From: an uncultured virus (IMG/VR IMGVR_UViG_3300008111_000114) | Lineage: Duplodnaviria > Heunggongvirae > Uroviricota > Caudoviricetes | Virus record (IMG/VR): IMGVR_UViG_3300008111_000114 | Reading direction: 5' to 3' (one strand) | Length of the DNA: 64,000 bases | In this document: positions 44,892-64,000 of the stretch, piece by piece | Layout: each line of letters begins with the position of its first letter | Numbering within the stretch: position 1 is the stretch's first letter | Position numbers and translations under genes: made by a program | The notes under the pieces: model-generated | What the model saw: the letters and a program-made list of their open reading frames with translations, nothing else | The model's database searches: none | Told to the model about the DNA's origin: nothing

Positions 44892-45236
44892 TTATTTAGA
44901 AAATTCTGATGTAATCTTATGAATTTCTTTGCGAAGCTTAACATTCTCCGCAAGAAGTTTGTCATTCTGTACTTTGAGTTCATGGATCTCACCCTGCAAA
45001 AGAAGGTTTTCTTCAACAAGTTTATCAATCTCACACTTTAGGAGTTCATTAGTGGATTTAATCTCATCCATTCCAGTACGTAATTCTTCCATAACACGAA
45101 GAAGAGTTTCAACGGTGGTGTTTGCAGCCTCCGAAATTACTCCTGTAACGTCAGCCTTCTGTTGGGGCTTAGTCAATAAATATGTGATAAAGCTTCCCAA
45201 TATACCCAGTAGGGCCACCGCAATCGTACTTTCCAT
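44892..45236 (-). CDS. Membrane-anchored coiled-coil protein
   Basis: N-terminal hydrophobic helix and long heptad repeat; has its own TATAAT and RBS. Confidence 0.6.
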   Translation of the reverse strand: MESTIAVALLGILGSFITYLLTKPQQKADVTGVISEAANTTVETLLRVMEELRTGMDEIKSTNELLKCEIDKLVEENLLLQGEIHELKVQNDKLLAENVKLRKEIHKITSEFSK

Positions 45237-45350
45237 ACCTAAAATGTCTCCTTATTTAATTGTAAATGGATTTATATCTAATTATAACAGGGTTGTTGAC
45301 CTGAAGAAAAATCTACGGTATTATAGATTGAGGGCGAAGGGGGCCAAAAT

Positions 45351-45887
45351 ATGACCTGCGTTGTGGGAGTAATTAGTAACGGAAAAGTGCACATGGCTTG
45401 TGACAGTGCTGCAAGCGATTCAGACATTGGATCAGTTCATAAGCGCAAAGATGCCAAAGTTTTCATGGTAGATGATTACATAATTGGTTTCTCTAACAGC
45501 TTTAGGATGGGTCAATTGCTTCAATATGACTTCTATCCACCAATTCCTAACAAAAGAAATCTAGAAAAGACAATGTGCATCGACTTTGTTGACGCAATTC
45601 AGAAGTGTCTTGTGAAGAATAATTTCATCATTGATAAAGATGATGACAACATCTCTGATTTGATCATCGGAGTTCACGGTAGATTATTTGTAATGGATAC
45701 TGACTTTAACATGGGTGAATACTACGATAAGTATTTTGCTATCGGAAGCGGATACCAATTTGCTCTTGGAAGCTTGCACTCAACCAAGCATATCAAGAAC
45801 CCACGTACACGCCTGACAAAGGCTCTTGAAGCCTCTGCAGAATACACAATGGGCGTAGAGCCACCGTTCCTTTATCTAAGCGAATGA
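45351..45887 (+). CDS. HslV/proteasome-beta-like Ntn hydrolase
   Basis: N-terminal M-T-C, D-S, K-V-F and 'AIGSG..FALGSL' motifs. Confidence 0.75.
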   Translation: MTCVVGVISNGKVHMACDSAASDSDIGSVHKRKDAKVFMVDDYIIGFSNSFRMGQLLQYDFYPPIPNKRNLEKTMCIDFVDAIQKCLVKNNFIIDKDDDNISDLIIGVHGRLFVMDTDFNMGEYYDKYFAIGSGYQFALGSLHSTKHIKNPRTRLTKALEASAEYTMGVEPPFLYLSE

Positions 45888-46218
45888 GAGATGATATAAC
45901 TAAGCATCTGACCAACATGTTGGGTGCAATAGAAGAATTACTAGCGGTATACAACCAGATACCAGAATCTAAGAAGTTAGAGATGGATACCAGACTAGAA
46001 GAAAAATTAAACAACCTGCAAAACATAATCAAATGGAGTAAAAATGGATAACGAAGACTTAAGTATTATCGCAGCGGAAGTGTCTAAAAAGCTATTCCAC
46101 ACCCTTTATAACGGTAAGGATATGGATCTTGTAGAGGCGGATACAAAGATGGCCTATTGTGCCTCAGTAACCGACTTTGTACTAAAGACGTTCAAAGAAG
46201 AGATAGAGAAGGCATTAA

Positions 46219-46503
46219 ATGAACAAGAATCAAATTGAAGAGTTAGTATCCAGTAACGAAAAGGTTTTGTTGCATTTTACAGCAGACTGGTGCCAGCCAT
46301 GTAAGCGTATGCAGCCAAACATAGAAGCATTTTTGCAGGAACAGCCTGACATCAAGTATGTAAAGATTGACGTAGATGATAACGGAACTCTAGCAATCGA
46401 CATGGATGTTAAGTCTGTGCCTACCCTTATGGCATATACAAACGGTGAAGTAAAGAAGAACATCGGCGCATTGCCACTACCAGAGATCAGAAAGTTGTTC
46501 TAA
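46219..46503 (+). CDS. trxA: Thioredoxin
   Basis: FTADWCQPCK, IDVD, V.SVPTL. Confidence 0.9.
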   Translation: MNKNQIEELVSSNEKVLLHFTADWCQPCKRMQPNIEAFLQEQPDIKYVKIDVDDNGTLAIDMDVKSVPTLMAYTNGEVKKNIGALPLPEIRKLF

Positions 46504-48024
46504 TGTCTGACATTCCATTGCCACCACCATTTGGGCTACCCAACATTGTGCTTGCTGCAGCGGAAGCACATCCAATCAACACAGAGTTTGACGAGCTTCT
46601 TGTAAACTTTCTGAGAAATTATTCAGAAGATCTTAATACCATGCCAGCAATTATGGAGTTGGGAAAGTCTAACAAAGCTATCTTACTTTTATGCAATCAA
46701 ATACTTAGCGACTATCCAGACACCGCAGAGTACGAATCTAGCCCAATGATGGTCACAGATGCCATGGGGCGGGAGAAGTTCTGGGAAGACGCTGGTAGAC
46801 CTAATGATTGAAAAGATCATCATATTCTACCTAATCTTGGCAGTATGGTGGAACACAAACCGCTGGATGACAGCAAACAAAATAATTAAAGATTTAAAGA
46901 ACCAGAGAGACAAATATAAGCAAGCTTGGACGGAGGGTAAGGATGTCATTGTTTGGGAAAAGACTGAAGAAGTTCGCAGTAGTAAGTAGCATACTTGCAG
47001 CATTTGGGGGAGCTATGTACTACGTCGTAATGTCTATTGCAGACGCATTCAAAGAAGTCGACTTCGATTTCTCAGAAGAAGAAGACGACGATTATCAAAT
47101 TTGACGAACTAGATAGGCGTACAGAGATATGCTTAGAGTGTCCATTATTCATGTTGAAGGATGGAAGGTGTAGACAATCTGGTGAATATCTAGTACAATA
47201 TATATATAACAGTTGTCCACTAGAGAAATGGTAGATATGGCTAGCAATAGAATAGTAGTATGCCCAACGTGCAAGCGTGACATAGAGGTTCGATCTGGAT
47301 TTGCACACATGACTTTAAATAATCATATAACAAAGGAGCACAAGTAATGGACGTTACATACCTACACCCATTGTGGTTGCTAGCAGGTTTTGCTGCTGGT
47401 TGGATTGTATGCTTCATTCAAATGAAATATGGCAAAAAGTAGAAAGCTAGCAAGCGGTGGAGAGGTTCCAGAGCTTGACGATGTTGTTGAATTAACTATT
47501 CATACAAAGGCTCCAGCTAAATGGGTGCTTATTGATATGGAGAATGGAAGAATGTACCAAGGCTCACAGAGGGGCATTGGCTATGGGAAATGGATATGGA
47601 TAAATGGACCTACAAGCAGCGGAGACGTCACATCTTCGGGATCCACGAGACCAGATAACCTACAAGAAAACTGATTGGCAGTGCCCTTGCAACGGCTGTA
47701 AAAAAGCGGCTAAGCGAGAGCGGGAAAGAATAGCAGACCTGTTACATAGCTCAGGCTATGAAGAGGCTGCATCATTTATTATGAAAGAGGAAAAATGAAG
47801 TTAAAAGTATTTGCAGGTAAATGGGATTCATGGGGCTTTGAAGTCTCATACTGCCATTGGTACAAGGGCTTGACTATAGGATTCATACATTGGTATGTAG
47901 GATTTGAAATCTGGACCAAGGAAGACATTGCAATTGCAGCCAAGCATGAAAAGACAATTGCAGATATCATTGCTGAAGTAAAGAATGATAGACCTAAGAA
48001 GAAAGCACCAGCTAAGAAAAAGAA

Positions 48025-48447
48025 ATGAGTTTTCAGTCAGAATCTAAAAAGTCTGGTGATGATTTTGAAGGGTTAGTCTTACAAGATCTAAATGACTTGG
48101 GATTCATTGATGTTGAAAAAAATGTTTTTATTCCAGGTGCTGGGATAGAAATAGATTTCTACGCAAACGAGCAATATGTTGAAGCGAAGGGAGGATATGA
48201 GGGAGACAAAAAACGGCCAGGGGCCAAGAGAACAGACAGTGTAAAGAAGGCTATAGCCAATGGTGCTCTGCTAAAAGCAGTAAAGCCAGAAGCTTATTAC
48301 ATAGTTTATTTCTCATCTAAGCCCAGACCTGGAGGATCTTCAGATCAAATGATTAGTACTGCTTTAAGTTCTAAGATCATAGATGAAGTAAGATATATAG
48401 AGGTCGAAAGTGAGCCGAATTATGATGATCAACTCCCTTTGTTTTAA
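48025..48447 (+). CDS. PD-(D/E)xK restriction-endonuclease-like protein
   Basis: 'G..FE......EIDF....YVEAKG' motif. Confidence 0.65.
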   Translation: MSFQSESKKSGDDFEGLVLQDLNDLGFIDVEKNVFIPGAGIEIDFYANEQYVEAKGGYEGDKKRPGAKRTDSVKKAIANGALLKAVKPEAYYIVYFSSKPRPGGSSDQMISTALSSKIIDEVRYIEVESEPNYDDQLPLF

Positions 48448-48786
48448 TGGATAAGTTTATATTTAAGTGTAAGTCTTGTAAGACCATCATGGTTATAGAG
48501 ACGGGATTGCCAGAAAAAGTACACATGGTTCCACCATGCCTATGCGGTAAATCTAGAATGGAATGGCTAGGGTCAGAAGAATACAAGTACGGCACACAAA
48601 AACCACAGGTCAACGACCTTATAGAAAGCCAGGAGTTTTTTGAAGAATGAGCCTAAAGGGTAGGTGCCACGATTGCTTAAAGCAGTTCCCACAGAACCTA
48701 ATGCAGATTGTGGCGGTAGAAGAAAAGATATTCTTTGTATGCGGTAAATGCTTCAAAGATTACGAAAACAGCAAAGGAGGAAAGAA

Positions 48787-49170
48787 ATGATATTTCACAA
48801 ACACCTATTGGTAAATGCCAAAGTGCATAACCCAATAAAGACTGAGCAAGAAGGCATCGACTTTCTTACCAATCTAGTCAATCAGATTGATATGAAGATT
48901 ATTAAGGGGCCTTTTGCAAGCTATGTGGATAAGGACGGAAACAAGGGTTTAACGGCTGTCGTCATGATAGAGACTAGCCATATTGCCTTCCATATCTGGG
49001 ATGAGGCAGACCCATCCTTGGTACAGTTCGATCTATACACATGCGGCAAGCTAGAACTGGATAAAGTTCTATCTATATTTAAAGAGACATTTAATGTCCA
49101 AACTCTAGAATTTGTTTTGTTCGATAGAGAAAACGGGTTCGTAGAAGAAGCTTCAGGAATAGAGTCGTAA
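48787..49170 (+). CDS. speD: S-adenosylmethionine decarboxylase proenzyme
   Basis: H.L.., GLTAVV.IETSHIA.H.W.E......DLYTCG. Confidence 0.85.
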   Translation: MIFHKHLLVNAKVHNPIKTEQEGIDFLTNLVNQIDMKIIKGPFASYVDKDGNKGLTAVVMIETSHIAFHIWDEADPSLVQFDLYTCGKLELDKVLSIFKETFNVQTLEFVLFDRENGFVEEASGIES

Positions 49171-49318
49171 TGTCACAAGATAACCTGTTCAAGATACAGG
49201 AGATGCCCAGATGGAAAGCCAATGTATTAAGAACGGTTGCATGGATAATAGGATTTAGGAAAGAATATCCATATGTCATTACACTTAATGTAGACTTAGA
49301 TAAAATAAGGGCCGAAAA

Positions 49319-49519
49319 GTGAACGCCGAACTAGAAGGTATCCCCACACCGATATGCCCGATGTGCGGCTCACAGCATTTTAAAATGGTCGTAATGTTCG
49401 ACCCAGAAACTTATGAAATCGCTGGATACGGGCTAAAAGAGTGTGAATGTTATTCTTGCGGGTGTAAGGTGACACCACCTACACCCCTTGATTTACCAGA
49501 AGATAGGAGGTTAATATGA
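49319..49519 (+). CDS. Small Zn-finger protein
   Basis: CP.CGS...C..CG...T.PTPLD. Confidence 0.55.
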   Translation: MNAELEGIPTPICPMCGSQHFKMVVMFDPETYEIAGYGLKECECYSCGCKVTPPTPLDLPEDRRLI

Positions 49520-50046
49520 AATCATTCTGGCAATCGCTAGATAAAAATAATGCCGCTGATGCAATTCTTACAGGATATAAGGGTGCATTTAAGGATATGC
49601 CAGTATATGCTGAGGTCCTAGATTTAGCCACAGGTGGCTCATACGCACTAGATTTTGGATGCGGGGTAGGCAGAAACACCCTAGCCCTATCTAAGAGATA
49701 CGATAAGGTTATAGGGTTTGATTTGCCCAATATGATCGAACTTGTGCCAGATGAGAATAAGGCTTCCAATATTACCTATAGCTCAGAATGGGCGGAGGTA
49801 AAAGAGATATCCTTTGATACAGTATTAGCTAGCCTAGTATTTCAACATATTCACGATGATGAACTGCATGAATATCTTAAGGATCTAAAGACTAATAAAC
49901 TTGTTTTACATAGTAGACTATGGATGGATGATACCAATACTCAGGTATTAGATATCGTCAATAAATACTTTAGCGTGGTATCGATAGATTATGTTAGGGA
50001 TCCTAACAATCCAATCGATGATCACTTTATAGGTATCTTTTCATGA
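49516..50046 (+). CDS. Class I SAM-dependent methyltransferase
   Basis: ALDFGCGVGR motif I, FD.V....VFQHI. Confidence 0.85.
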   Translation: MKSFWQSLDKNNAADAILTGYKGAFKDMPVYAEVLDLATGGSYALDFGCGVGRNTLALSKRYDKVIGFDLPNMIELVPDENKASNITYSSEWAEVKEISFDTVLASLVFQHIHDDELHEYLKDLKTNKLVLHSRLWMDDTNTQVLDIVNKYFSVVSIDYVRDPNNPIDDHFIGIFS

Positions 50047-50337
50047 TCGAGCTATTCTTTGCATGCTTATATGCCCTGTTTTTATTATATCTATGGAATA
50101 GAGAATCCAAGAAACCAATTGTGGATAACTCAGATCCTAGGGTCGTTCATATTATCTATCCCAAAGGTCGGCGGGTTAGCAAAGAGATGATGAATCCCCA
50201 TATAGGAGGATATAAACCTAAAGAACAAGAGGTAGGTTTTGCTACAGGCAAATGGTCAGATGATGATGACTACAAAGGTCCAATAACACCTTTTATAGGA
50301 CCAATAAGGTAAAAGCTTTTATTTCCCCCCGCTCCAC

Positions 50338-50414
50338 TTATCCACAATATTATGCACATCCTGTGGATAACTATGTGGATATCCTGTGGATAACTACTAT
50401 AAATCTGTGGATAA
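50338..50414. promoter_or_regulatory. Cluster of DnaA boxes followed by AT-rich tract (candidate origin or DnaA-titration locus)
   Basis: TTATCCACA 50338; TGTGGATAA 50362, 50385, 50406; one-mismatch boxes 50350, 50374. Confidence 0.75.
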
Positions 50415-50772
50415 CTATAGTATATACAGGGCAATATAGATTTAAACAGTGCTATATAGTATAAGATAAATTATATGGGTATTGGAACGACTATCATAAC
50501 CCGTTCGTAATGTCAATAGCTTTTATATAACAAATTTATAAAAATTGATCATAATATAATCAGGGCATATAATGCGTATACCAAATATGATCGATAATGT
50601 CAATATAATGCCAATATATTCTCATTATATGAGATTTATATGGCATAAATTTTGACCATATTCTGGGATATTTTAATGTATTTTAATCTTATTTTACATT
50701 ATTTTATAGTATTTTATATATATTATATGGATTATTCTGGGATTTTATGATATGCTTCGTAAAGGAGGTTAT

Positions 50773-50922
50773 ATGAGCAAGGATAATGTAGTTACTTCTG
50801 ATTCCGCCGCCCCGAAGCGGGGACCACAGAAGAATAATAAGTTTGGTAGAGATTTTAAAGGCGGGAAGTCTAAAGGATCTACTAATACTAGAAGAGTAAA
50901 TAAACCACAGAAGAAAGGATAA
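50773..50922 (+). CDS. Small Lys/Arg/Gly-rich peptide (49 aa)
   Basis: AAAGGAGG RBS, MSKDNVVTSDSAAPKRGPQKNNKFGRDFKGGKSKGSTNTRRVNKPQKKG. Confidence 0.5.
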   Translation: MSKDNVVTSDSAAPKRGPQKNNKFGRDFKGGKSKGSTNTRRVNKPQKKG

Positions 50923-51137
50923 TAAGCAGAATATAGCTCTTGACAGTTTCTGTCATATCTGCTAAACTTCTGCGATTTTTTGAGTATCGTCGTAATGTCT
51001 TATTAGATATTTAGAGATATGATTCTCAAAATATTCTGGCATTTTTTATAGATCTTCGTAATGGTAGATATTTTTATAAGTTTAGGGCCTTACGGGACAG
51101 TTTATCCTTCACATGTCCCAGGTGAGGTTAGCGTATG

Positions 51138-51491
51138 CTAAGCTTTTGTTAATATACTGCCATGATAATTTACAAACTCATCAAAGGAATGCCATTCCTC
51201 CCCGCTCCCAACGGTCAGGTCTGTAAAGTCAATTGTGATTGGTGTATCCATAAACCCTTGGTCTGACGGGTCGCAGCCATAAATCCCGAATCCAGTTTCA
51301 TCCAGAATGCTATCCTGCATTAAATAACTAATTGCCATACGGGTGCCATATGATGGGTCTTGCCATCTTGGTCTTGCGTGATTTAGCGCAGCGGCTAAAT
51401 CGGAATATAATGAGTCTTCTCCCCAATGGCTGTATAACGCCACTGCATGGTCCTCATCTGTTTTAAATACGAACGTACATCTTGCTCCCAC
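51138..51491 (-). CDS. Hypothetical phage protein
   Basis: 'MGAR....F.......LYSHWG' pattern; 117 aa. Confidence 0.55.
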   Translation of the reverse strand: MGARCTFVFKTDEDHAVALYSHWGEDSLYSDLAAALNHARPRWQDPSYGTRMAISYLMQDSILDETGFGIYGCDPSDQGFMDTPITIDFTDLTVGSGEEWHSFDEFVNYHGSILTKA

Positions 51492-51502
51492 ACCTTGCTC
51501 CT

Positions 51503-51751
51503 TTACTTGTTGGTTATATTAAAATCATACTCTACATTGCCCATAAATGTCCACCACTTTTCGTTATCCCAATGGCTCATCATAGCCATCTCAGAATAAT
51601 CAAATGTATAGCCATTTACTTGTTCTACAAGATTGTTTCTCTTATAGAATTGAAACCACCACTCAGTCTTATCCCCGTGCTCTTTGGTATAGTCAGAGAA
51701 CCCGTTAGGGAAGTCCTGCTTGGCTTTGCTGATATAGTCGTTTAGTTCCAT
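51503..51751 (-). CDS. Hypothetical protein, probably leaderless
   Basis: TTGACG-17-TATATT ends 6 nt before the ATG. Confidence 0.55.
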   Translation of the reverse strand: MELNDYISKAKQDFPNGFSDYTKEHGDKTEWWFQFYKRNNLVEQVNGYTFDYSEMAMMSHWDNEKWWTFMGNVEYDFNITNK

Positions 51752-51890
51752 ATATTAAATATAGCAGATGGCTGCTGTTCCGTCAACACCCCCAGGACGG
51801 GCTTTATTTAACAACTTGGTCGGCACCTGATAGCTGCACCATCTGTTAATCATTTATGATCCTATCTATTATACCAAAAACCAGGGCAGA

Positions 51891-52196
51891 TTACAATTCC
51901 AGCGTCATCTGATTGTCTACCCACGTTTCGCCTTCCATATGAGACCTAATCTCATGACACATCTTCGCTACTCTGAAGTGCTTGGTATCAACCATGCCTC
52001 GTCTGTAATACTCAGACATCTCCTCAATCCAAGCCCACAATGTATCCCAAAACTGTTCTTGAATACGTGGGGACTTGTTGCCCATATGCCAAGCAAAGTT
52101 TAGTTTGCTAAATCTGACATCAGATAAGTAGTCTTCCACAATGGTAGCCAACTTACCCTCGTCTATGTCTTTATCGCCTATTGCCATTATCCACAC
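51891..52196 (-). CDS. Hypothetical protein
   Basis: 101-aa ORF. Confidence 0.5.
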   Translation of the reverse strand: MWIMAIGDKDIDEGKLATIVEDYLSDVRFSKLNFAWHMGNKSPRIQEQFWDTLWAWIEEMSEYYRRGMVDTKHFRVAKMCHEIRSHMEGETWVDNQMTLEL

Positions 52197-52264
52197 CTTT
52201 CCTCATTCGATTGTAACATAAGAGGGGGGAGGCAGGCAAGTAGCCTCCCCCACTCATCCCCATG

Positions 52265-52894
52265 TTATCGCTCAGTTACATCTGTATTACCGTCATATGA
52301 GTCAATAGTTAGATTCTCAGAGATATGAGAGTCAATATCAAAGTCCTCGAATTCAGCCAATGGGACCTCAACTTCACCACGAACTGTAATGCTTGCTTCA
52401 AACGTTACAGTCTTTACAGGGTTGTGGCCAAGGATATCGCAGAGCTCCACGAGAACATCTGATAGTTCAGTGTTAGGATTAAACCAGTGGTCTTCAGTCA
52501 GACAGTCAATTACTTTATTAACCTGAGACTGCAGATTATTTAAACGGTCTGTTGTACGGCGGGCCTGCTCCAGAGTCCATTCAAGGTCATTTACCTTAAG
52601 GGTAGGATAAGTTGTCTCGCCATTTTCAATCTTCTTGTACGTGACAAGAACGTTTGCATCATAGGTCATGGGGACCTGATTTGTTGTTTCCATGGGTTGT
52701 TGCCTTTCTATAGTTGGGTTATCTTCAATTGTACTAGAGACCAGTGACATCTGTCTACCACAGGGGCACTTCATTTGGACTACCCCAGAAGGAAAGCCAA
52801 AACGATCACTAGTAGTTATCTCCACCAAGGTATCACATTCGTCTGGGTCGCAGACAAATGTGTGCTTGGTTGATGTATATGCTGGGTCAAACAT
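52265..52894 (-). CDS. Hypothetical protein with N-terminal Zn ribbon; internal promoter/RBS suggests a second start at 52693
   Basis: CxxxxC...CPCG; internal TGTCAC-N10-TACAAT and GAAAGG before ATG 52693. Confidence 0.5.
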   Translation of the reverse strand: MFDPAYTSTKHTFVCDPDECDTLVEITTSDRFGFPSGVVQMKCPCGRQMSLVSSTIEDNPTIERQQPMETTNQVPMTYDANVLVTYKKIENGETTYPTLKVNDLEWTLEQARRTTDRLNNLQSQVNKVIDCLTEDHWFNPNTELSDVLVELCDILGHNPVKTVTFEASITVRGEVEVPLAEFEDFDIDSHISENLTIDSYDGNTDVTER

Positions 52895-53666
52895 TGATTT
52901 TGTCCCGACGATACTCAGGAACAAATTCTTCAGTCAGGTACTGCTTATGCTCCTCGCATTCAGCAACTAACTCTAGGTCTGCCTCACCCATATAATGACA
53001 TGCATTGCAGATTTCTCCACAGTCATTGTCGCAGTACTCTAATGTATTTATCTCATCACAGTCACGACATTTGTTATCGTACTCTTCAAGTTCCGTTACA
53101 TTGCCACGAAGAATTTCATACTCTCCGCCCCAACCTGTCTCTTCTTCAAATGAGAGAGTAAGTAAGGAGTTAGGAACCATGTTGGATAGCGTAACTAATA
53201 CTGATACGGCAGGAGACCACGCAGTATTGTACTTATATACCAGCCATTGGTCCTCACCATTAGATGTGTGCTCTAACAGTTCGGTGTCAGGATACTCGTC
53301 GTTATCTTGCACGGCCACATCCCACTTAGTTCCCCAATGGGTTGTGTTCCAGTTGTACCAGTCTTTTTGAGTCATTGCATGCTTGACTTCTTTAGCAAAC
53401 CACTCTGGGTCATTTGTATCAATGCCTAGGCGAGATGGTTGCTGAACATACTCTTCCATTGTGATACCGTCTTCCAATGGGGAATGGATATTCCAGAATG
53501 CGAAGACAGGGGCAGAGTAATGAGTTTCTTTTACTTCCATCTGCATAGTCTCACGATTCCAAGAATCATGAAGAACGGTAAATGGAGTATTTAGTTTATC
53601 TTTGATATAGTCAATCTCAGACTTAGGGCCTTGGATTGTCAATGTGTTGTAACACCAATTTGGCAT
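52887..53666 (-). CDS. DUF1281/YubB-like ferredoxin-fold protein
   Basis: MPNWC.N.L.I.G...WY.WN...WGTKWD...TAWSP motifs. Confidence 0.7.
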   Translation of the reverse strand: MPNWCYNTLTIQGPKSEIDYIKDKLNTPFTVLHDSWNRETMQMEVKETHYSAPVFAFWNIHSPLEDGITMEEYVQQPSRLGIDTNDPEWFAKEVKHAMTQKDWYNWNTTHWGTKWDVAVQDNDEYPDTELLEHTSNGEDQWLVYKYNTAWSPAVSVLVTLSNMVPNSLLTLSFEEETGWGGEYEILRGNVTELEEYDNKCRDCDEINTLEYCDNDCGEICNACHYMGEADLELVAECEEHKQYLTEEFVPEYRRDKINV

Positions 53667-53693
53667 GGGGGTAACCTTTCTTTAGTTGCCGAT

Positions 53694-53816
53694 TTACTTG
53701 GTAAAGACTGTGCCTTGTGCTTCAGCCTTGCTAATCAATTCTACTTGCTCTTTAGAAAAACGTCCACGCTTTCCGACTTTTTGTCCAAGAGAAACTAGAT
53801 ATTCACGCTTTGTCAT
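53694..53816 (-). CDS. Stand-alone Lsr2-like DNA-binding domain (40 aa)
   Basis: MTKREYLVSLGQKVGKRGRFSKEQVELISKAEAQGTVFTK; helix-RGR-helix; AAAGGAGG RBS and TTGACA promoter. Confidence 0.55.
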   Translation of the reverse strand: MTKREYLVSLGQKVGKRGRFSKEQVELISKAEAQGTVFTK

Positions 53817-53868
53817 TTGACCCTCCTTTCGTTCCATATATTAATTATTGCAAAAACAGGGCGGATTG

Positions 53869-54060
53869 TCAAGAAATTTTGGAGGACTCGTCAATAATTT
53901 CGTAAGCCCAGTTAGTTAATGATTCCTTATTTGAATTGAAATGGTGACCGCAAAACATTAGTTCACCCGTAATACCCTTGCACAAGAATAAAGCTTGGGC
54001 AGAGCAACGATCACATCTATCATTATTTGTTAATACATATTCCAGGGTTGTTTCAGTCAT
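53869..54060 (-). CDS. Small Zn-binding actinobacterial-type protein
   Basis: DRCDRC.AQA...L.FCGHH. Confidence 0.6.
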   Translation of the reverse strand: MTETTLEYVLTNNDRCDRCSAQALFLCKGITGELMFCGHHFNSNKESLTNWAYEIIDESSKIS

Positions 54061-54141
54061 ATCTTAATCATACAGTATTCCAGGGCATTTTTCAACTCCT
54101 ACGTAATGTCCAAATTTTGAGACAGACCCGACCCGCTAGCT

Positions 54142-55847
54142 TTACGTAAGCATTTGTCTTTCTTCCCACTCTGCTAATGTTCGCACAACAAAATCTTTGC
54201 CAAGACTGTAACAGAACTGAACTGCTTCTAGCAAATCTGTTGATGTAAATAGCGGGGGATTCATTACATCTTCTTCATGTAAAGAATAAACCTCAAACTC
54301 ATCTATACCACCAGGGGAAACTGAGTATTCTACTTCCAAGATCTCTAACATTGGTTTGTGATACATTTATTCCTTTTCCTCGTCATTTAGCCAGCCGTCA
54401 TTATCTAATGCGACTAGGAAATCGTTGTCCCTCATCCAATCACGGATTGTTTCATCAATGATTTCATCTCCTAGGTCCATGCTTATGCCAATGCCGTCTG
54501 CATCTTCCCAAAATTTATCAAAGATTTGTTTTAATGTTATGCCGCTAGGCACAGCCTCGTCAACATAGTCATTCTCAGCAAGGTCATCATACTGATTGTT
54601 TTCATAAATGTTTCGGAGCACATCAAATGTCCAAACCCACACCAAGGACGGGAAGACAGGGAGAACTGTAATCTTATCTACAATCTCATTTAAATCACGA
54701 TACACGTCATCCCTACGAGTTGCTTCCTGTAAATCAATTGTCATTACGTGCTCCAATCGCAAATGATAGGTCATATGTTAGTTTGTATAGGCTAGTATAT
54801 GCGTCTGATATACCCTCCCAGTATTTGCGTTCCATAGATTCCATAGCGTCTGAATAATCATTCTCTTCTTCAATACGCTTGGCTTCCTCTAATTGTGCTT
54901 CTGCAACCAGCATGAGGTTCTTTAGTTCCCCGTGCATGATGTCTAAACCATTTACGCCATGGTCCACCATACGTTGTAGGTGTGGTTCAAGTGTCTCTAA
55001 TTCAATCATTATTCAATCATACCCTTCGCTACTGACATTAGGTGACGGGTAGCAATAATCTGTCCATTAAGACTAATCATCTCAATATCCAAATGCTCCC
55101 AATCCTTAGAGGCAGGGTCGAGTTTTTCCATTTCATCTTCTACCTGCTCAGCGTCTTGCATAAGACTAATGAGATGTAGATTCATATATTCTAGTAATTT
55201 ATTCATATATCTATCCTAGCAGTAGGGGCGGACAATTTCAATTAGGGTAGGTGTGATTTAGGCCACAAATATTTTATACAGGATAAATATAACTATGGCA
55301 CTTATTCCTAGAAATCCTAGGACACCTTTTCCAACAAGTTCTCTAAACTCTTTACTCATATTATCTCCTAACAAAACGGGCACGGAATAGCAACGAGTTC
55401 GTCTTTGCCATTGTAAAAGTAGTACTTACCATTGTAGCATTGCTTACACTGCTTATGTCTAGTCAAAATACCCCTCCGCCCATAAGCCCTGGAGAAAACT
55501 AACAGTATCCTCTAGATCTGATCTGAGCTGAGTCTTGTCCATTAAATCGGACGGGTGTCTAAGATAGAATAACTTAGCATCATGTACAGCATTAATCATC
55601 CTATCTAAGTCTTCCTGTTGATATCCTAGCATAGGTAATACTCATCTTTCTCTGTATAGCCATAGTATTCATTATAAGATTGTTTGACACTATCAGGTGC
55701 AAATTGTAAGAATTGCCATTCCGCATATTCTACACCCTCATCTAGGTTAGTGTTATTCCATTGTTCAAACAGGTGCTCTTCAATATCAACCTGAATTGCT
55801 CCCATGATATGTTCCCCAAGACTATCTGTGAACATTTCTACAGCCAT
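54142..55847 (-). other. Run of short acidic hypothetical genes (54142-54366, 54367-54744, 54734-55009, 55009-55206, 55460-55633, 55626-55847)
   Basis: Tightly packed, often overlapping, same-strand ORFs. Confidence 0.55.
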
Positions 55848-56044
55848 TTCTTTTTCCTTTCTTGCGGTGTGAGACCACCGAATATACCGAACTCTACTTT
55901 TTCATCAATAGCAAACTTGAGACACTCACCCTTTACAGAGCACGAACCACAAATTTGTATTGCTCTATCCATTTTACCTTTTGCCTGCGAGAAAAACAAG
56001 TCGTGTTGTTCTGCGCTACAACTGGCTTCTAATTGCCAACTCAT
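55838..56044 (-). CDS. whiB: WhiB-family transcription factor (short)
   Basis: W...ASC....DLFF.......AI.IC..C.V...CL.FA......GIFGG.T..ER. Confidence 0.9.
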   Translation of the reverse strand: MSWQLEASCSAEQHDLFFSQAKGKMDRAIQICGSCSVKGECLKFAIDEKVEFGIFGGLTPQERKKKWL

Positions 56045-56205
56045 AATTTACCTTTCTATCCTTTACTACTATCCTACACCACGGCACTGACATTCTGCAA
56101 ATTCCAGGGCATTTTCATATACGTACGTAATGATAAAATAAACAGTCAGACCCGCCCCTTTTTTCTGATTTTGTCAAATCGAAATGCGATCAGCTAAAAA
56201 TAAAA

Positions 56206-56232
56206 CAGGGGCGCATTTCTGCGCCCCCGTGT
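56206..56232. terminator. Intrinsic terminator after DUF932 gene
   Basis: GGGGCGCA-TTTC-TGCGCCCC with T-rich tail on the - strand. Confidence 0.65.
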
Positions 56233-56242
56233 TAGCAATTTT

Positions 56243-57274
56243 TTAGATTGCTAAAACCGCTTTGAGAATTTTATTTTTCTCAGCGGTGATAACAGGGTCA
56301 AACCCTGAAGCAGAAGCGGAAAGAGATTCCGTATTACCCTTGCGAGCAGAACGGAAATAATCCAAACGCTCAGTTAGAGCATTTAGCGCACCCCACTTTG
56401 TGCCTTTGATACCAGCGTTAGTTGGTGAGTTATGATAAAGTTCGTCAATTAGAACGACTTTATTTTCCCACTTCTTTAGCGCACCCTTAGCGTCTTTTTC
56501 AGGCTTTGGGTAAAGGTTGCGGATAAGGTCAGAGAATTGCTTATCGTTGATTTGAGATTCAAACAGACCATTAGCCTGCTTAGAAAACTCATCGAAATAA
56601 GCAACAGATAGACCAAGAGCCTCACGAGCAGCGAGAATCTTTCCATCTGCGGTCTGCGTGTGGCGAATCTTGAAAGATTGCTTAGCAGATTTCATCGCTA
56701 GGTTTAGCGTATTTTGGCAACGAACACGAACAGGTGTAATTGCTGCCTGAACAGCAACAGAGCCGTCGTGTGATGTCCAAACGATTAGATACAATTTTGT
56801 TGTATCTGCTACGCCTTTAGGGTCAATGACTAGTTGATTAGGCAACGCCCAAGAGCCATAGACAATGCGACCTTGCTTTAGAGAGCCAGCAGAATCAACT
56901 TTCACATCGGGATTTCCGTCGTGTAGATTTTCTGCGAATGAAAATAGTTCTTCATTCTGAACGACTTTATAGCGTGAGCCTACAACAGACAACACATCGG
57001 TATTGCCAGCGGTGTATGGGTTATCACGAACAACAAGGAATGAATCAGTAATGAAATTGTGATGAGGCGCAAGTGGCGCAACATCTTCAAGACGAACATT
57101 CCAATTAGAGAGTTTAGCACCCTCCATAATTTCAGAGATTGAAACATCTCCAGATTCTGAATCAAAAACCTTATTGGCAAAAGAGTGCCAAGCGGGATTT
57201 GAACGGGATTCAACAAGAGCAAACGACACATCGCCGTTTTCTACTTCTTGCTTATGAGCGAGATTTGTAGCCAT
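56243..57274 (-). CDS. DUF932-family phage/plasmid protein
   Basis: PAWH, V...Y..VQN.E.F.F, AGSL..GR.V, SHDGS......TPVRV.C.NTL, IRHT, GT.WGA.NA.TE..D. Confidence 0.85.
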   Translation of the reverse strand: MATNLAHKQEVENGDVSFALVESRSNPAWHSFANKVFDSESGDVSISEIMEGAKLSNWNVRLEDVAPLAPHHNFITDSFLVVRDNPYTAGNTDVLSVVGSRYKVVQNEELFSFAENLHDGNPDVKVDSAGSLKQGRIVYGSWALPNQLVIDPKGVADTTKLYLIVWTSHDGSVAVQAAITPVRVRCQNTLNLAMKSAKQSFKIRHTQTADGKILAAREALGLSVAYFDEFSKQANGLFESQINDKQFSDLIRNLYPKPEKDAKGALKKWENKVVLIDELYHNSPTNAGIKGTKWGALNALTERLDYFRSARKGNTESLSASASGFDPVITAEKNKILKAVLAI

Positions 57275-57482
57275 TTTTATTTCCTTTCTATTGGATACTT
57301 ATCAAGTCTAGCACACATAGGTGGGCTATGTCTAGTTAGATTGGCAAACTAGGGCAATTCGGACATTTTTCAGTGGGCAAAATCACATCGTCGTAACTTG
57401 ACAAACGGAGTTTTGCGGGGCGGGCCTGCAGCGGGCCCTGGAAAGAAAGGTAACCAGGGCCCGTGCATTCATTTACTGTACG

Positions 57483-57645
57483 TGTGCTGCAGCTCCATGA
57501 GTCGGTCCCATGGACGGGAAGTCGGGATGGTGAACAGATCGTGCCATTAATTTAGTTGTGTGCACCGTTGACACCATCCCGAAGATTAGGTGGGAATTCT
57601 TACTTACGACATATGGCGAGAACATTCCCGAAACTGCCACTGTGT
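57483..57645 (-). ncRNA. Candidate multi-stem structured RNA
   Basis: Three hairpins enclosed by a basal stem; G-U wobbles favour the - strand; followed by a long GC hairpin at 57426-57466. Confidence 0.55.
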
Positions 57646-57655
57646 CGATTAGCAA

Positions 57656-57838
57656 TTAGCCAATTTTTACCATTGCCCAGCGAAGTTGGTTATTAGGTGT
57701 GCGAAGAGCAATCTTAGTTAGATTTGGTCTAACTGAAACAATCTCCTCCAAGCGACCTGTGATACCTGACTTGCCTGTGGTGAATACATCACCCTTGCGA
57801 TAGAAACTATCGCTGTTATTTCCGAATACTGGGGACAT
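57656..57838 (-). CDS. Small beta-barrel (SH3/KOW-like) protein, paralogue A
   Basis: 60 aa with RBS and promoter; similar to 58451-58600. Confidence 0.6.
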   Translation of the reverse strand: MSPVFGNNSDSFYRKGDVFTTGKSGITGRLEEIVSVRPNLTKIALRTPNNQLRWAMVKIG

Positions 57839-57920
57839 TCGTTTTTCCTTTCGTTTGTTTGCTTACTATTTAGTTTATCAGATGTGTTGGGGGGAGGTCA
57901 AATACCCCTCCCCCACATTT

Positions 57921-58343
57921 TTACAAGTATCGGGCGATAGCGTTGTAAGTAGAAGTAGAAACTACTTCCTCATCGGTCATCTTGAGAATACGAATTGCGT
58001 TCTCAATTTCCTCTACCATCTCATTGTAAGAGTGGCGGTGGATTTGCTCAAAATCACGCTCAGGTTGCTTAGGAAAATCCTTTTCCTCAACAATCAAATC
58101 AAAATCAACATTGAGAGTGTTGTTCCAATGACGATAGTTCGTGCGAACATTTTGAGCCTTAGCGATTTGCGCTGTGGCAAACTTAGCAATTTCTTTGTTC
58201 CATTTCTCAACGGACTTCTGATACTTTGCCTCGTTCTCATCTTGCTTAGCATAATCATTTTTGATTTCTGCTAACTTAGTTTCCAAAGCCTTGATAACTT
58301 TGGGTGTTGCGATTTTTACATTTATCGCTTTTCCTCTTGCCAT
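57921..58343 (-). CDS. Hypothetical helical phage protein
   Basis: 140 aa, RBS GAAAGGAA, own promoter and downstream hairpin 57884-57919. Confidence 0.6.
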   Translation of the reverse strand: MARGKAINVKIATPKVIKALETKLAEIKNDYAKQDENEAKYQKSVEKWNKEIAKFATAQIAKAQNVRTNYRHWNNTLNVDFDLIVEEKDFPKQPERDFEQIHRHSYNEMVEEIENAIRILKMTDEEVVSTSTYNAIARYL

Positions 58344-58450
58344 TTTGTTTCCTTTCTTAGTTGGTATTACTATTCTATCAGACCTTACCGACAGAATAAA
58401 GTTGGTGAGCAGTTTTGATTGACTTGCTCAGGTCAGTTTCATCTGATAAA

Positions 58451-58600
58451 CTACTTGATAGTAGTCCAGCGAGTTTCGCCCTCTACATCAAGACGAACAC
58501 GCACCGAGCCAGATGGGTTCTTTACGACTTCCTTTACAACGCCAGAAACTTTGCTCTGAGCGGTTGTAATGGTTTCACCGATTTTTGGTGTCTTAGCCAT
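58451..58600 (-). CDS. Small beta-barrel protein, paralogue B (49 aa)
   Basis: MAKTPKIGETITTAQSKVSGVVKEVVKNPSGSVRVRLDVEGETRWTTIK; not in the ORF track. Confidence 0.65.
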   Translation of the reverse strand: MAKTPKIGETITTAQSKVSGVVKEVVKNPSGSVRVRLDVEGETRWTTIK

Positions 58601-58688
58601 TTTTGCTTCCTTTCGTTTGTTGGTAATAATAGTTTAGCATTTCAGACCGACAGAGCGCAAATCCAAATACGGACAAATCGGACATTTT

Positions 58689-59498
58689 CTAAAAAACTTT
58701 TGTGGGAAAAATCACAGTGTCGTAATTTGACAAACGCCTTGCGGCGGGGTGGGCCTCAGCTCTTACGGTACAAGATATAAACAATTTAGTTGCGCTAAAT
58801 CTAATGTCAGCCTTACCATAAACACAAAGACCACACGATACACACGCAGAGCCTGCTTGTGAAATTAATGGAATACGTTTTGCATTTTCAGGGCACTTTG
58901 CACCAACCTTGCCAGTTAATTCTTTCATTTTGTTTTCGGTTAACGCAAACGTTTTGCCTAAGTATGCCAGGCGCACACCATGATTAATTTTTAAGTCTTC
59001 CGCAATGGATACGTTTTCGTCGTCGGTAGAGAAATAAAGAGATAGGTTAGGGATACCCTTAAGCAATTCCGCCGCAGACTTTACACGAGTGTAGACCCAA
59101 AATTGAATGTCGGGATGACGGCGAACAATTTCAGCCCATGCGATTGTATAAGTATCGTTAAAGAAATCTCCGTCCCAATGGATACGGAATAATTGTTTTG
59201 CATTACGCTTTACACAGTCAGCCTTGAAATCAATAATCATTTCATCAAGAAGAGACACCATAGTGTCATAGTCAGCGTCTTTTAGTAATTCCCAATTGTG
59301 AAGAAGAGTGGCCTTTACTCCCTTGTAGATTTTTTCGAGTTTTCCTGCATAGCAAACGCTTTCACAAACACTAGTGGCACCAGGACACGAGAAATTTTTT
59401 CCAGCAGGTAGACCGAAAGTGTTGGCGATTGTTGGGGTTTTTCCATTTGGGGAGACTGCATTTGCAACCTTTCTATCATTAGAGCGTTTTAGTTTCAT
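58689..59498 (-). CDS. Gp88-like Fe-S (radical-SAM-related) phage protein
   Basis: CP.A...C...CYA, RIH..GDF, W.YTR, C..C..C motifs. Confidence 0.7.
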   Translation of the reverse strand: MKLKRSNDRKVANAVSPNGKTPTIANTFGLPAGKNFSCPGATSVCESVCYAGKLEKIYKGVKATLLHNWELLKDADYDTMVSLLDEMIIDFKADCVKRNAKQLFRIHWDGDFFNDTYTIAWAEIVRRHPDIQFWVYTRVKSAAELLKGIPNLSLYFSTDDENVSIAEDLKINHGVRLAYLGKTFALTENKMKELTGKVGAKCPENAKRIPLISQAGSACVSCGLCVYGKADIRFSATKLFISCTVRAEAHPAARRLSNYDTVIFPTKVF

Positions 59499-59737
59499 GG
59501 GGCACCTTTCTTTCTTTATTCTATTCTACACCATAGGGGCGACATTTATGCTTGCGCTTGCGAGAATACGCCTTTTTATTTTTTACAGGCGTGGCTGCAT
59601 TACTACGGCGTAACTCCATAAGTCGCCGTAATTCCTCAGCATTTTTTTTCGTTCTCATAATAAACTAGTCTAGCATAACCCACTGACATTCCACAAAATT
59701 TCGGCGTTTCTACGTAAAGCTCATAAATCGGACATTA

Positions 59738-62700
59738 CAGGCCCGCCGCTGTCGGGCGTGTCGTGTCAAGTCGACACGCCGCAGCAATTATGAATTAGAT
59801 CACAATTCGCTTTCGATTACCCATTCCCACAAGTGGTGAGCGTCAATAATCGCATTCGCTGGCGCAGTAATTTTATTTCTCCAAGTTACTCCGTCTGGTA
59901 ATGAAATTTCTTTATCGTGTTCACCTGAATTGTATGCGTCAAGTGCTTCGATACAAACGGGCACCATTGAATGGGGAACGGGCGGGTAATGATTAGAACG
60001 CAATTGAATAGTAATCGCAGTCTCCAAATCTAAATCAGGAAACAAATCCTTATCCGCTAATTCCGTTGATAGATTACTTCCCATTTACTTCTCCATTTCG
60101 ATAGAAATTCTTTGTATACATTTTACCCATTGGGTCTGACAAGTTATAGGTTGCGTATTCTTTAGCATCGCCAAAATCTACGCATTTATTCCAAGCATCT
60201 ACGGCTTCAAGCATATCGGTATAGCGATACGCACCAAATAGTTTTCCGTCATAGGAAACTGTAAGAGAGTAGTTATATTCCATTAGTCTTTCCATTCTAG
60301 CGCAAGGCAAGCGCATTTAGTTATCTTTAGTGTATCGCCACGCATTTCTACTGTGGCAAGGGTATCGCATTTATCGCATAAGAACAATTCCATTAGAACA
60401 CCACTTCCATTCCTTCTAGAACAAGATTGTGAGGATTACACTCACAATACTCAAAATCATAGTCCCCGTCTGGAGAAACCCAACCTGTAAATCCTTTGCC
60501 GTAGCAAGTATCGCAAGCGAGTATATTTTCAATAAGTCTTTTTATAGCAGACATTTTATTTCCTTTCTTTATGAATAAAGTCTATCAGAACCCACCGACA
60601 TTTAGTAGTCGGTTATTCTGACGGCTACTGTTGCCCATTGGTCATTTAGACGACCCGTTGGGCGATAGCGAATAGCGAAGGCTTCATAGCCTTCGGGTGG
60701 ATAGACATCTTCACGCTTTTCTGCGTGGTTGATAATACCTCCGTTGAAACGGCGGGATAGGGATTGTGGGGCATAGTAAGTATCTACTAGCAAATCAACT
60801 ATGGAATATGCTCTCATTAGTTTTTCCTTTCTTTATACCTACAATTTTACACGACCCGACTGACATTTCTCTACTTACTAGCGAGTAATTCCAAATAGTA
60901 AGACGCTCAGCCGTGTGAGAAATCTCACAAGATCTGGCTGTCAAGTCGACACGCCGTAAATTTCAAAAAAATTCTGGCAATTCCACGTAATCGTACATAA
61001 TGCGTAAAACGGACATTTCGGGCAGGCCCGCCGCTGTCGGGCGTGTCGCAATTAGTTGAAAGTTGAACTATTCTTTTTTTAGATCAGCTTTGAAATCTTT
61101 TATTGCTAAAACTAAAAGTGGAATTGTTACACCCGCCAAAATTATTTGAACGAGTGTTGTTAGAATTCTATTTGTTGTCATTTTTTATTCTCCTAAAACT
61201 TCTTTAGAAATATTTTCAATTTCATTTATTTCTGAAATCATTTCGTGCATTTGAGTTTCAGATAAAATTGCGTGGCTAACCAAAGTTGCAGTTAGCGCAG
61301 AAAGAGTTGCGGAATATTCAAATAACATTCTCGCCATTGTGTCATTATCAACATCATTTCGCATTTGAAAAATAGCAGCAGCCATCTGCATTACTTGTTC
61401 ATCTTGAAACGCTTCTTGAGTTGCGTCTTGAATTTTTAGAGCGGTGCTTATCATTACTTATTCTCCTCAACATCTAGAACTTCGAAAGCGTCAAACTTGA
61501 TTAGTTCGCTATCAGGCAAATAGCGGAGAGATTTATTCAGGGCAAAGATAGCGGATAAATCGGTGTCGGCTTCCACGACATAGGAGATTAGAATATTTTT
61601 TTTCATTAGTTATTTTCCATTTCTTGTTGTAGCATTTTGATAATTTTCTTAGCATTCTTTTCAGAAATAAAAACCGACATTGTGCCGATTTGACGAGCCA
61701 TTGAAGTTGTAGAGTTTAGAGAACTATTAGGAAACTTTTTTTCCTCAAGTTTCCTAAATAAATCTCCGATTTCGTTTAGTGTTGAGAGTTCCATTATTTC
61801 TTACGACCTTTCAATACTCCACGAATTGAAAGCACATCACAATCAAACTTTACAGAGATACCGACAGGGAGAGTGTCGGGATAAGTTGATACGAATTGAG
61901 CAACCGCACCTTTAGAGGGCAGGGATAGAGTTTTTACAGAACCATTGAAGGTTTCTAGTCTTACTTGATAAGTCATTTTGACTTCCTTTCTTTAGGTAAT
62001 AATTGTAGCATTGGGGGCTGACATTTTGGGGATTTCCCGCCGTGTCGGGGTGTGATTTGTATCACACGATTACTCGTGGATACAATTGGACTCGATTTCG
62101 TGTCCAAATTCCTCTACGAGTTCCTCGTAGATTTCATCAAGATAATCAAGATAATCTGACATTACTTTCTCCTTTCTTAGAGATTACAGGCAACGCCTGT
62201 GCTATGAACACCTTGTTCATAGTGGTTTTTTTCTATACAATTTTTTTGTAAATCGTGAAAGATTTTACAACGCATTTCGTGATAGTTTATGAAATCTTTA
62301 TGAACGACTTTATCGCAAGTCTGGCAGAAGTGCCATTTATGATTATCCTTACGGATAACCTTGTTATCTATTACATCATAGCGGTCTATGAATTTTTTAG
62401 AGTGTGAGCAATCGTTTGCTTTACACTTATTTACTTTAGTGTTAGTCATTTTATTACCTAACCTTTCTTTTTGTTATGCCACTATTCTAGCAGGGGGGTC
62501 TGACATTTTCGGGGGTATAAATCGGTCAAATCGGACATTGTGAGCCACATCACATATGACCTACATCACATTGTGATCGAAATCACAAAAATTTCCAGCG
62601 ATTTCACGGCGTGTCGTATTGACAAAAAGTTATCCACAGGGAAACATTACCACGAGGAATTTCAATGTGGCACTTGAAGCATAACATTTTTACTTCTGCT

Positions 62701-63194
62701 TTAGTTAGCAGAGCAATTTCCAAATCTAGTTTAGTAGAAGCGGAAGCATTTTCTAATGATACCCAACCAGCACCATTTTCATTCATTTCAAAAATTTCTA
62801 AGTTAGCCATTTTTACAACACCCAACTTTCTTGAGTGTATGCTAACCACTCACCAAGGGTCATTATTCCCTTGTATTCATTACACTTACCGCAGAAAACT
62901 TCTCCTGCGTAGTCTGAGCAAAACACGCAAACAATCAAGTTTGCTTCATCAACGGAAACATTTTCCAATGTTATTTCTTTTATTAGTGTAGTCATTTTCT
63001 GACCTACCTTTCTTGTCGAGAACCTTTCTCAACCTTCTATACCTAGAAGTCTAACATAGACCACTGACATTTTGACCCGTTTTTCGGGCGTGTCGCAAAA
63101 CTATTTTTGTGATTTACACCACATTTCTGGGGGCTTTTCAAATCGTCTTAAATCGGACATTTCGGACACAGGCCCGCCGCTGTCGGGCGTGTCG
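59738..63194. repeat. Dispersed perfect 26-bp repeat x3
   Basis: CAGGCCCGCCGCTGTCGGGCGTGTCG at 59738, 61023, 63169. Confidence 0.95.
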
Positions 63195-63445
63195 CAGCTT
63201 TTGTCAAGGCGACACGCCGATCAGTTTTGTGAGTTATCTCACCAGCCTTTTTTGACTGCCTCAAAAAATCGAGGGCGGGAAAATCTAGGATTATCCTTTG
63301 CGAAATAGTCAGAGAAATCTCCAGCCATTTCCAAAATCAAATCGGGATTTTCTGGATAAGCCTGATTCAAAATATCAGCAGCGGTTATATAGTCTTTTCT
63401 AGTCATCATTTTACTTATTACGCTTTCTAAATAGTTTGATATCAT
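59800..63445 (-). other. Modular array of short hypothetical genes, most with their own promoter/RBS (e.g. 59800-60084, 60074-60283, 60602-60817, 61185-61454, 61606-61794, 61794-61976, 62177-62449, 62604-62810, 62813-62995, 63239-63445)
   Basis: ORF track plus GAAAGG-type RBSs and repeated intergenic motifs. Confidence 0.6.
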
Positions 63446-63840
63446 TACGCTTTAGAATTTTATTTACAAAATAAATTACAACAACGGAGCCAAGAAATCC
63501 CCATGTGAAATCTAGAGCAATAAAATCAGAATAGAAGCCGAAGCCCCATTTTGAGAATTCTATTTGAATTTCCATTTTATTAGTTATCCTTTCCGTTAGT
63601 TTGTTCGACCTTACGCATATGCGCTACGACATTCTTAGAAACTTTTTGTAGTTCAGTTACAAAAATGTTCATTTCTTCAGGTGAAGAAGCGGTGAAGCCA
63701 GTGCCTAGAAGTTGAGCACCATCCCAGATTGAGTATGTGATTTTCATTTATTTATTTCCTATTCTTTTAGTTTGTTATGTCTTTAGACTACACTACGGGG
63801 GCGACATTTTCAAGCCGCCACGCCGTAGCGTTTGTGTGAT

Positions 63841-63999
63841 TTAGTTCACACTAACCGCTATTGTGCGGAATGAATTACGGAATGAGTTCGGATTGCGAAC
63901 CTCTACAAGATACGCCTCAGCGTTTTCATACCATACGGCATGAGGATGCTTTTCGGCGGATACAATTTCACCCGTTAGGGTTTTAGAGCGATAGGTTTT
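63841..63999 (-). CDS. Partial hypothetical protein, paralogue of 60602-60817
   Basis: ...KTYRSKTLTGEIVSAEKHPHAVWYENAEAYLVEVRNPNSFRNSFRTIAVSVN*; shares G.I..AEK...EA(F/Y)...R...T(V/I)AV. Confidence 0.55.
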   Translation of the reverse strand, partial: KTYRSKTLTGEIVSAEKHPHAVWYENAEAYLVEVRNPNSFRNSFRTIAVSVN

Positions 64000-64000
64000 T

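Follow-up and report, generated by a model that had tools for sequence, protein, structure and literature searches.

What switches on the block of small minus-strand genes at one end of an uncultured phage genome, and does the phage or its host supply the switch? We analyzed the 64,000-nt stretch of DNA held as IMG/VR record IMGVR_UViG_3300008111_000114 (Caudoviricetes), referred to here as the window, which is part of a phage genome of ~40% GC. The window consists of two blocks. The + strand block, from position 1 to ~50.3 kb, contains tail genes, DnaB, a primase, a DnaE-type polymerase, RecA, a terminase, seven tRNAs and a second whiB-like gene. The minus-strand block (50.4-64 kb) is made up of small open reading frames (ORFs), among them those for WhiB, a DUF932 protein, GP88 and DUF7455. 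A recurring element, TGTCRG-N10-TANNNT, stands upstream of genes in the minus-strand block. We found that the sites matching this element are a real and conserved class of predicted promoters, that on every feature testable in sequence the class fits promoters of the PafBC type, and that the phage probably borrows the PafBC switch of its host.

The element was found as an exact match 13 times in the window, as compared to a mean of 1.06 in shuffled sequences (maximum 5; none of the 100 shuffles reached 13). Eleven of the 13 were minus-strand matches, located at 55016-63069, and four further minus-strand sites had one mismatch in the box with the same N10 spacing (P1 to P15 in Table 1). The original prediction, made from the letters of the window, had listed nine exact and four one-mismatch sites. 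All of these were recovered together with two exact sites that it had not listed (P7 and P14), and the one-mismatch site P15, being internal to an ORF, was the least certain. Its claim of an invariant spacing agreed with the number of exact minus-strand sites at each spacing (11 at N10, 0 at N9 and 2 at N11), and the longer box TGTCRGTG was indeed present in four sites. A -35-like hexamer, scoring at least 9/12 in a sigma-70 scan, was detected at just 3 of the 15 sites, consistent with the predicted lack of a canonical -35, and GTC was kept in all 15. Each site had also been said to precede a ribosome-binding site or a leaderless ATG. We observed a Shine-Dalgarno sequence of the GAAAGG/AGGA type followed by an ATG downstream of 12 of the 15 sites, an ATG six bases past the -10 at the two leaderless sites P13 and P14, and a nearly leaderless arrangement at P8. 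The statement that no such site occurred in the + strand block was correct for promoters but not for the motif as such: two exact + strand matches exist (5440 and 43935), and both were rejected as promoters because they lie in coding sequence, in the tape-measure gene and in the first codons of a whiB-like ORF.

Searches with GP88 and DUF932 yielded a set of 159 related IMG/VR loci of 35-42% GC, which together with L001 amounted to 160 loci and 2.6 Mb. The TGTCRG motif at N10 was present 2164 times on the gene strand of these loci and only 3 times on the opposite strand, and the numbers for other spacings were between 10 and 185. When all hexamers at spacings of 4-21 upstream of TANNNT were counted in an unbiased manner, TGTCAG at spacing 10 came first (1552 vs 1). 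Each of five large relatives, one of them 85% complete and the other four complete, had 14-19 gene-strand sites and 0-3 on the other strand; nearly all of the sites were inside a single block of 10-12 kb, and a control with the reversed pattern gave 0-3. A stricter 17-base version of the motif identified at least 160 stretches in IMG/VR. The logo generated from 1446 unique sites read aAATGTC(A, 75%)GTggN4T(68%)G(82%)nTAtAAT, with an extended -10 (TGn) in most sites and no information at -35. The flanks of the box in the logo were AA upstream and TGG or ACC downstream.

PafBC, an activator that responds to single-stranded DNA (ssDNA), acts by 'sigma adaptation', inserting itself between sigma region 4 and the DNA. 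In the available excerpts of PMC8635444 (all source papers are cited here from excerpts), the in vivo motif of PafBC is tGTCgg(N10)tA(N3)T, with the 5' part at -23 to -28 and without a -35; the GTC triplet, whose two guanines are read by R46 and R50 of PafB, shows strict conservation at recA across actinobacteria. In the excerpted literature PafBC is also described as constitutively present in the cell and activated by ssDNA of 10-12 nt. The original prediction had equated the phage motif with the PafBC (RecA-NDp) consensus, and the comparison bore this out. The phage box lies at -28 to -23 relative to the predicted start site (11 exact and 4 one-mismatch gene-strand sites), and the box, the N10 spacing and the missing -35 of the logo all agree with the PafBC motif. 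To avoid circularity, we assembled a candidate set independent of the box, using only TGnTAnnnT, a Shine-Dalgarno sequence and a start codon. Of these candidates, 1000 were on the gene strand, as compared to 54 on the opposite strand, and 646 of the 1000 had the exact box at N10. A further 34 had a box with a single mismatch, which occurred at position 1 (11 cases), 3 (2), 5 (7) or 6 (14) and in no case affected the G or C of the GTC core, which are bases that PafB reads. SiwR, a mycobacterial WYL activator that also acts at -26, reads GGA according to the excerpts of PMC10693628, so the GTC core points to PafBC specifically. No LexA SOS box (TCGAAC-N4-GTTCGA, up to 2 mismatches) was found in the window.

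We also detected a second element close to the promoters. With one mismatch allowed, the palindrome TGTGA-N6-TCACA had 12 copies in the window (2.66 expected), 11 of them at 55252-63850, and was within 110 nt of 7 of the 15 promoters. Among the relatives it was carried by 758 of 1457 promoter contexts, centred at -54.5, -64.5, -74.5, -84.5/-85.5 and -95.5 from the predicted start site, with a secondary peak at -69.5 that was out of phase. After clustering at 25% mismatch, which reduced 1435 contexts to 1027 clusters (513 of them with the palindrome), the phasing persisted, with a best period of 10.25 bp (R 0.645) that fits placement on one face of the helix (steps of ~10.5 bp). Of the 763 exact palindromes, 612 were located within 120 nt upstream of the box, with the logo TGTGAtnTAnaTCACA. 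Class I CRP sites of E. coli are centred at -61.5, -71.5, -82.5 and -92.5. The position of the palindromes at whole helical turns upstream suggests a CRP-type dimeric regulator, probably that of the host, which likely helps or gates the promoters. With the extended -10 and the phased CRP-type sites, the wiring is more complex than the original prediction described. We infer, on good grounds, a functional link of the array to both PafBC and a CRP-type regulator.

Two more repeated elements were noted in the same region. The box variant AATGTCCGNTTT, which has no -10 of its own, occurred 8 times in the window against 1.29 expected: six copies are given in Table 1, a seventh gene-strand match (61670) reads TGTCGG, and one is on the + strand. 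In the relatives, AATGTCCGNTTT preferred offsets of -32 and -105, and TGTCCG boxes without a -10 were present upstream 320 times on the gene strand and 102 times on the other strand. A GC-rich inverted word, GGCGTGTCG, was present in 8 copies against 0.05 expected, and in 496 of 1456 upstream contexts of the relatives. At cassette boundaries (59755-59780, 60947-61048, 62608 and 63087-63218) the word pairs with its complement to give 9-bp hairpins whose loop contains TTGACA, and the hairpins are followed by GCCCGACAGCGGCGGGC and a AATGTCCGATTT box.

The host is predicted to be an actinobacterium, based on the two WhiB genes, the Actinomycetota clusters of the Atlas and the relationship to Streptomyces and Mycobacterium phages. 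The polymerase was 59% identical to polymerases of Streptomyces phages (Stanwilliamsviridae), and 283 of the 394 records matching GP88 were Mycobacterium phages and 101 were Streptomyces phages. The nearest Atlas clusters of WhiB were Actinomycetota, an assignment at the phylum level only, and the look-up with SpeD led to viral clusters. A megablast search of the minus-strand block against GenBank phages gave no nucleotide-level match, and near-identical DNA was present in freshwater/lake metagenome runs from 16 studies. The excerpts of PMC8223512 place the Pup-proteasome locus in all Actinobacteria with pafBC tightly linked to it, and describe RecA-NDp as reaching beyond mycobacteria. A literature search combining Nanopelagicales and PafBC gave no match.

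We propose that the array is fired by host RNA polymerase containing SigA together with host PafBC, with a CRP-type co-input, a model that we think somewhat likelier to be right than wrong. The TGTCRG box lies at about -28 to -23, separated by exactly ten bases from a -10 that usually has TGn, with no -35, and its most likely reader would be the housekeeping RNA polymerase (SigA) with PafBC as the host activator. ssDNA would switch PafBC on, and PafBC would then bridge sigma region 4 and the DNA of the box. The ssDNA might come from incoming DNA ends, from phage replication or from ultraviolet damage. On about half of the promoters, a cAMP-receptor-type dimer bound at the CRP/GlxR-type palindrome would help or gate transcription. 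In this manner ~30 small genes, including whiB, GP88 and that of the DUF932 protein, would be tied to the ssDNA alarm of the host and perhaps to its nutritional state.

Several observations weigh against this model. Streptomyces phages BillNye, Mandalore and Pepperwood and mycobacteriophage D29 had 0-4 sites, which is the control level; the hosts of these phages do have RecA-NDp promoters, yet the array is absent from the phages. Relative to the mycobacterial consensus the phage box is more stringent and richer in A, with A preferred at position 5 (75%) and AA before the box, and this may indicate a reader of somewhat different specificity. An extended -10 (T 68%, G 82%) can work without a -35, so SigA alone might suffice. 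Four RNA-library runs covered the region 44001-64000 as assembled contigs, which carry no start-site information; one 13.7-kb contig spans both strand blocks, and DNA carry-over in the runs is possible. Finally, the + strand block has canonical TTGACA/TTGACT-N17/18-TATNNT promoters in intergenic gaps (22949-22978, 39579-39608 and 43547-43576), by which the phage appears to use ordinary housekeeping promoters for its replication and structural genes. Given these, the PafBC-type block, predicted to be early, might just as well be a delayed class set off by the ssDNA of phage replication.

The strictness of the box relative to the host consensus and its own flanks (AA; TGG or ACC) would also be expected if TGTCRG were read by a phage-encoded or virion-delivered factor of no recognizable family, an analogue of PafBC or of T4 MotA/AsiA, with the array serving as middle promoters. 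We regard this as conceivable and, on the whole, unlikely. The phage has dozens of small ORFs without a family, so a novel phage factor is possible, and the canonical promoters of the + strand block could express such a factor first. The phage also has two WhiB-like proteins, and the WhiB-like family binds sigma region 4. A Pfam scan of the 110 ORFs of the window identified, as transcription-factor families, the two WhiB proteins and one weak 51-aa helix-turn-helix (HTH) and no others. WYL, HTH_Crp_2 and Sigma70_r2 were found in none of the five large relatives, in which HTH_11 appeared below threshold only, and no transcription-factor family was found in 74 additional ORFs of G003, a complete relative. 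An unrelated protein would also have to share by coincidence the PafB box, the N10 spacing and the invariant G and C.

Somewhat less likely again is that SigA acts alone through the extended -10, and that TGTCRG is an operator at which PafBC or another protein shuts the genes off, or a decoy that titrates PafBC. TGn in most sites is in agreement with this, as are the 15-20 high-quality boxes per genome, the extra TGTCCG boxes without a -10 with their strand bias, and an influence of pafBC on mycobacteriophage resistance, for which the excerpts of PMC12848934 cite Rafique 2025. On the other hand, the fixed N10 distance to the -10 suits an activator that bridges to RNA polymerase and exceeds what an operator needs, and the box is more conserved than TGn. 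Since canonical -35 promoters are present elsewhere in the phage, the missing -35 in the array looks deliberate. Least probable of all, and in our opinion improbable, is that another factor or an alternative sigma of the host lineage recognizes TGTCRG at -26: further WYL activators such as SiwR work at -26 and the cultured Streptomyces relatives do without the motif, but SiwR reads GGA and not GTC, the -10 is of the housekeeping type and, in the excerpts of PMC8635444, the GTC core is strictly conserved at recA across actinobacteria.

The model with host PafBC as the activator can be extended. With 15-20 strong boxes per genome copy and extra TGTCCG boxes without a -10, replicating phage DNA would titrate PafBC. 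The array might thus be a two-input gate, with PafBC (ssDNA) and a CRP-type regulator (cAMP) acting on swappable cassettes of small genes, while the replicating phage DNA soaks up PafBC and blunts the DNA-damage and defence response of the host. We put this forward as a speculation that is doubtful in its full form.

The positions of the elements and of the genes identified in the minus-strand block are given in Table 1. Pfam confirmed both the whiB and the gp88 assignments of the original prediction.

Table 1. Predicted promoters, repeated elements and Pfam-identified genes of the minus-strand block (window positions; palindrome positions for P1 to P15 are centres relative to the predicted start site).
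Feature	Position	Strand	Description
P1	63785..63806	-	TGTCGC (one mismatch), -10 TAGTCT; predicted to drive the ORFs from 63747-63580 onward; CRP-type palindrome centre -64.5
P2	63048..63069	-	TGTCAGTGG...TAGACT; palindrome -74.5
P3	62484..62505	-	TGTCAGACC...TAGAAT; three tandem palindromes -69.5, -85.5, -102.5
P4	62002..62023	-	TGTCAGCCC...TACAAT; heads ORF run 61976-61185; palindrome -63.5
P5	60844..60865	-	TGTCAGTCG...TAAAAT; palindrome -84.5
P6	60579..60600	-	TGTCGGTGG...TAGACT
P7	60120..60141	-	TGTCAGACC...TAAAAT; within 3' end of ORF 60074-60316, upstream of ORF 59800-60084
P8	59667..59688	-	TGTCAGTGG...TAGACT; nearly leaderless ORF 59521-59658
P9	59523..59544	-	TGTCGC (one mismatch), -10 TAGAAT; predicted to drive GP88
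P10	58631..58652	-	TGTCGGTCT...TAAACT; palindrome -84.5
P11	58372..58393	-	TGTCGGTAA...TAGAAT
P12	56071..56092	-	TGTCAGTGC...TAGGAT; predicted to drive whiB
P13	55213..55234	-	TGTCCG (one mismatch), -10 TAGGAT; leaderless ATG 55206; palindrome -53.5
P14	55016..55037	-	TGTCAGTAG...TATGAT; leaderless ATG 55009; in 3' end of preceding ORF
P15 (doubtful)	52728..52749	-	TGTCAC (one mismatch); inside ORF 52265-52924; in-frame ATG 52693 with GAAAGG Shine-Dalgarno downstream
CRP/GlxR-type palindromes (eleven)	55252, 58701, 59789, 60914, 62051, 62539, 62555, 62572, 63108, 63228, 63835		at most one mismatch
AATGTCCGNTTT boxes (six)	57356, 58675, 59725, 61006, 62528, 63150 (span 57356..63161)	-	box variant without own -10
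GC-rich inverted word GGCGTGTCG / CGACACGCC (8 copies)	59755..63218		8 vs 0.05 expected
WhiB	55838-56044	-	Pfam
GP88	58689-59498	-	Pfam
DUF932 protein	56243-57274	-	Pfam
DUF7455	53869-54060	-	Pfam

Other features of the window were recorded alongside the array. The strongest intrinsic terminator of the block (56205-56230, minus strand; 11-bp stem with 8 GC pairs and a T-tail) lies directly 3' of the DUF932 gene and divides it from the whiB promoter. Between the DUF932 promoter and the ORF at 57656-57838 there is a GC-rich non-coding stretch of ~360 bases (57290-57655, minus strand), and in each of the four RNA-library runs the summed contig depth peaked in the bin 57341-58007. This stretch could be a conserved RNA, or a region common to many related phages; an Rfam scan of 50000-64000, which includes it, gave nothing above threshold. 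A second candidate promoter class, GCCCTG-N6-10-TANNNT, was rejected as weak: it occurred 5 times against 2.09 expected, was equalled in 5 of 100 shuffles and recurred only in the closest relative. Sites of the form GCCCTG(G)-N6-10-TATNNT were seen on the minus strand at 50414-54086, downstream of the PafBC-type block, and in the relative G002 at 86641-88878. At the convergence of the + and minus-strand gene blocks, a DnaA-box cluster (50338-50414, and also 50120) had six words within 77 bp, four of them exact TTATCCACA and two with one mismatch. Across the window such words were weakly enriched (34 vs 20 expected), and the cluster could mark a phage origin or serve as a binding site for DnaA.

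The phage also carries DNA-processing genes of its own. The genes at 28742-29743, 30808-31575, 31837-32403, 41062-41547 and 45351-45887 encode RecA, a Cas4-like PD-(D/E)XK exonuclease, a RuvC-like resolvase, a pyrimidine-dimer glycosylase and a proteasome/HslV-like peptidase. This gene set makes or processes ssDNA and damaged DNA, and is relevant to the signal to which PafBC responds. RecA genes 75-85% identical to the RecA of this phage were present on contigs (one of 109,918 bp) filed in metagenome-assembled genomes labelled Bacteroidia and cyanobacterium. These contigs appear to be of phage origin and to have been binned wrongly with unrelated genomes; the other matches listed were distant RecA genes.

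So far PafBC 'sigma adaptation' has been known only from the DNA-damage response of hosts. The original prediction was aware of no description of it for a phage, and a search of the literature on PafBC with phages or actinophages, covering search listings and abstracts with subscription journals outside its coverage, likewise gave no phage promoters of the TGTCRG type. If the model is correct, this would be the first phage to use the PafBC activator, and it would belong to an abundant family of lake phages with 11-20 such promoters per genome. The phage-linked WYL regulators in the literature covered are repressors of defence systems, so a phage that exploits the ssDNA alarm would be a new angle. 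The natural variation among the many promoters of the family would also help to dissect how PafBC recognizes DNA, the in vitro transcription assay published for M. smegmatis could be applied directly to the phage promoters, and the phased CRP-type sites would provide a second, testable host input.

Among known systems, the middle promoters of T4 (MotA box and AsiA, 'sigma appropriation'; compared with PafBC in the excerpts of PMC8635444) resemble the array in that a box for an adaptor bound to sigma region 4 replaces the -35. The T4 adaptor is phage-encoded and remodels sigma, whereas the array has what appears to be the box of host PafBC and no recognizable adaptor was found among the phage ORFs scanned. 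The SiwR promoter of M. smegmatis, as excerpted from PMC10693628, is similar in its use of a WYL activator through a -26 element and differs in the triplet read (GGA, not GTC) and in that SiwR has only one operon under its control. With class I CRP promoters (E. coli lac type) and the Crp/GlxR sites of actinobacteria the array shares the 16-bp palindrome TGTGAtnTAnaTCACA, the steps of ~10 bp and the placement on one face of the helix, while the phage centres run from -54.5 to -95.5 relative to the predicted start and a -26 box takes the place of the -35. PafBC-dependent promoters of Mycobacterium and other Actinobacteria, as they appear in the excerpts of PMC8635444 and PMC11804915, have tGTCgg at -28 to -23, N10 and a housekeeping TANNNT as the phage sites do. 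The -35 is missing from both, and both keep the G and C of GTC invariant and often have GTG after the box. Unlike these host promoters, the phage copies form arrays of 11-20 in front of small genes without an assigned function rather than repair genes, and they have a stricter box (A at position 5), a common extended -10 and, in half of the cases, phased CRP-type sites.

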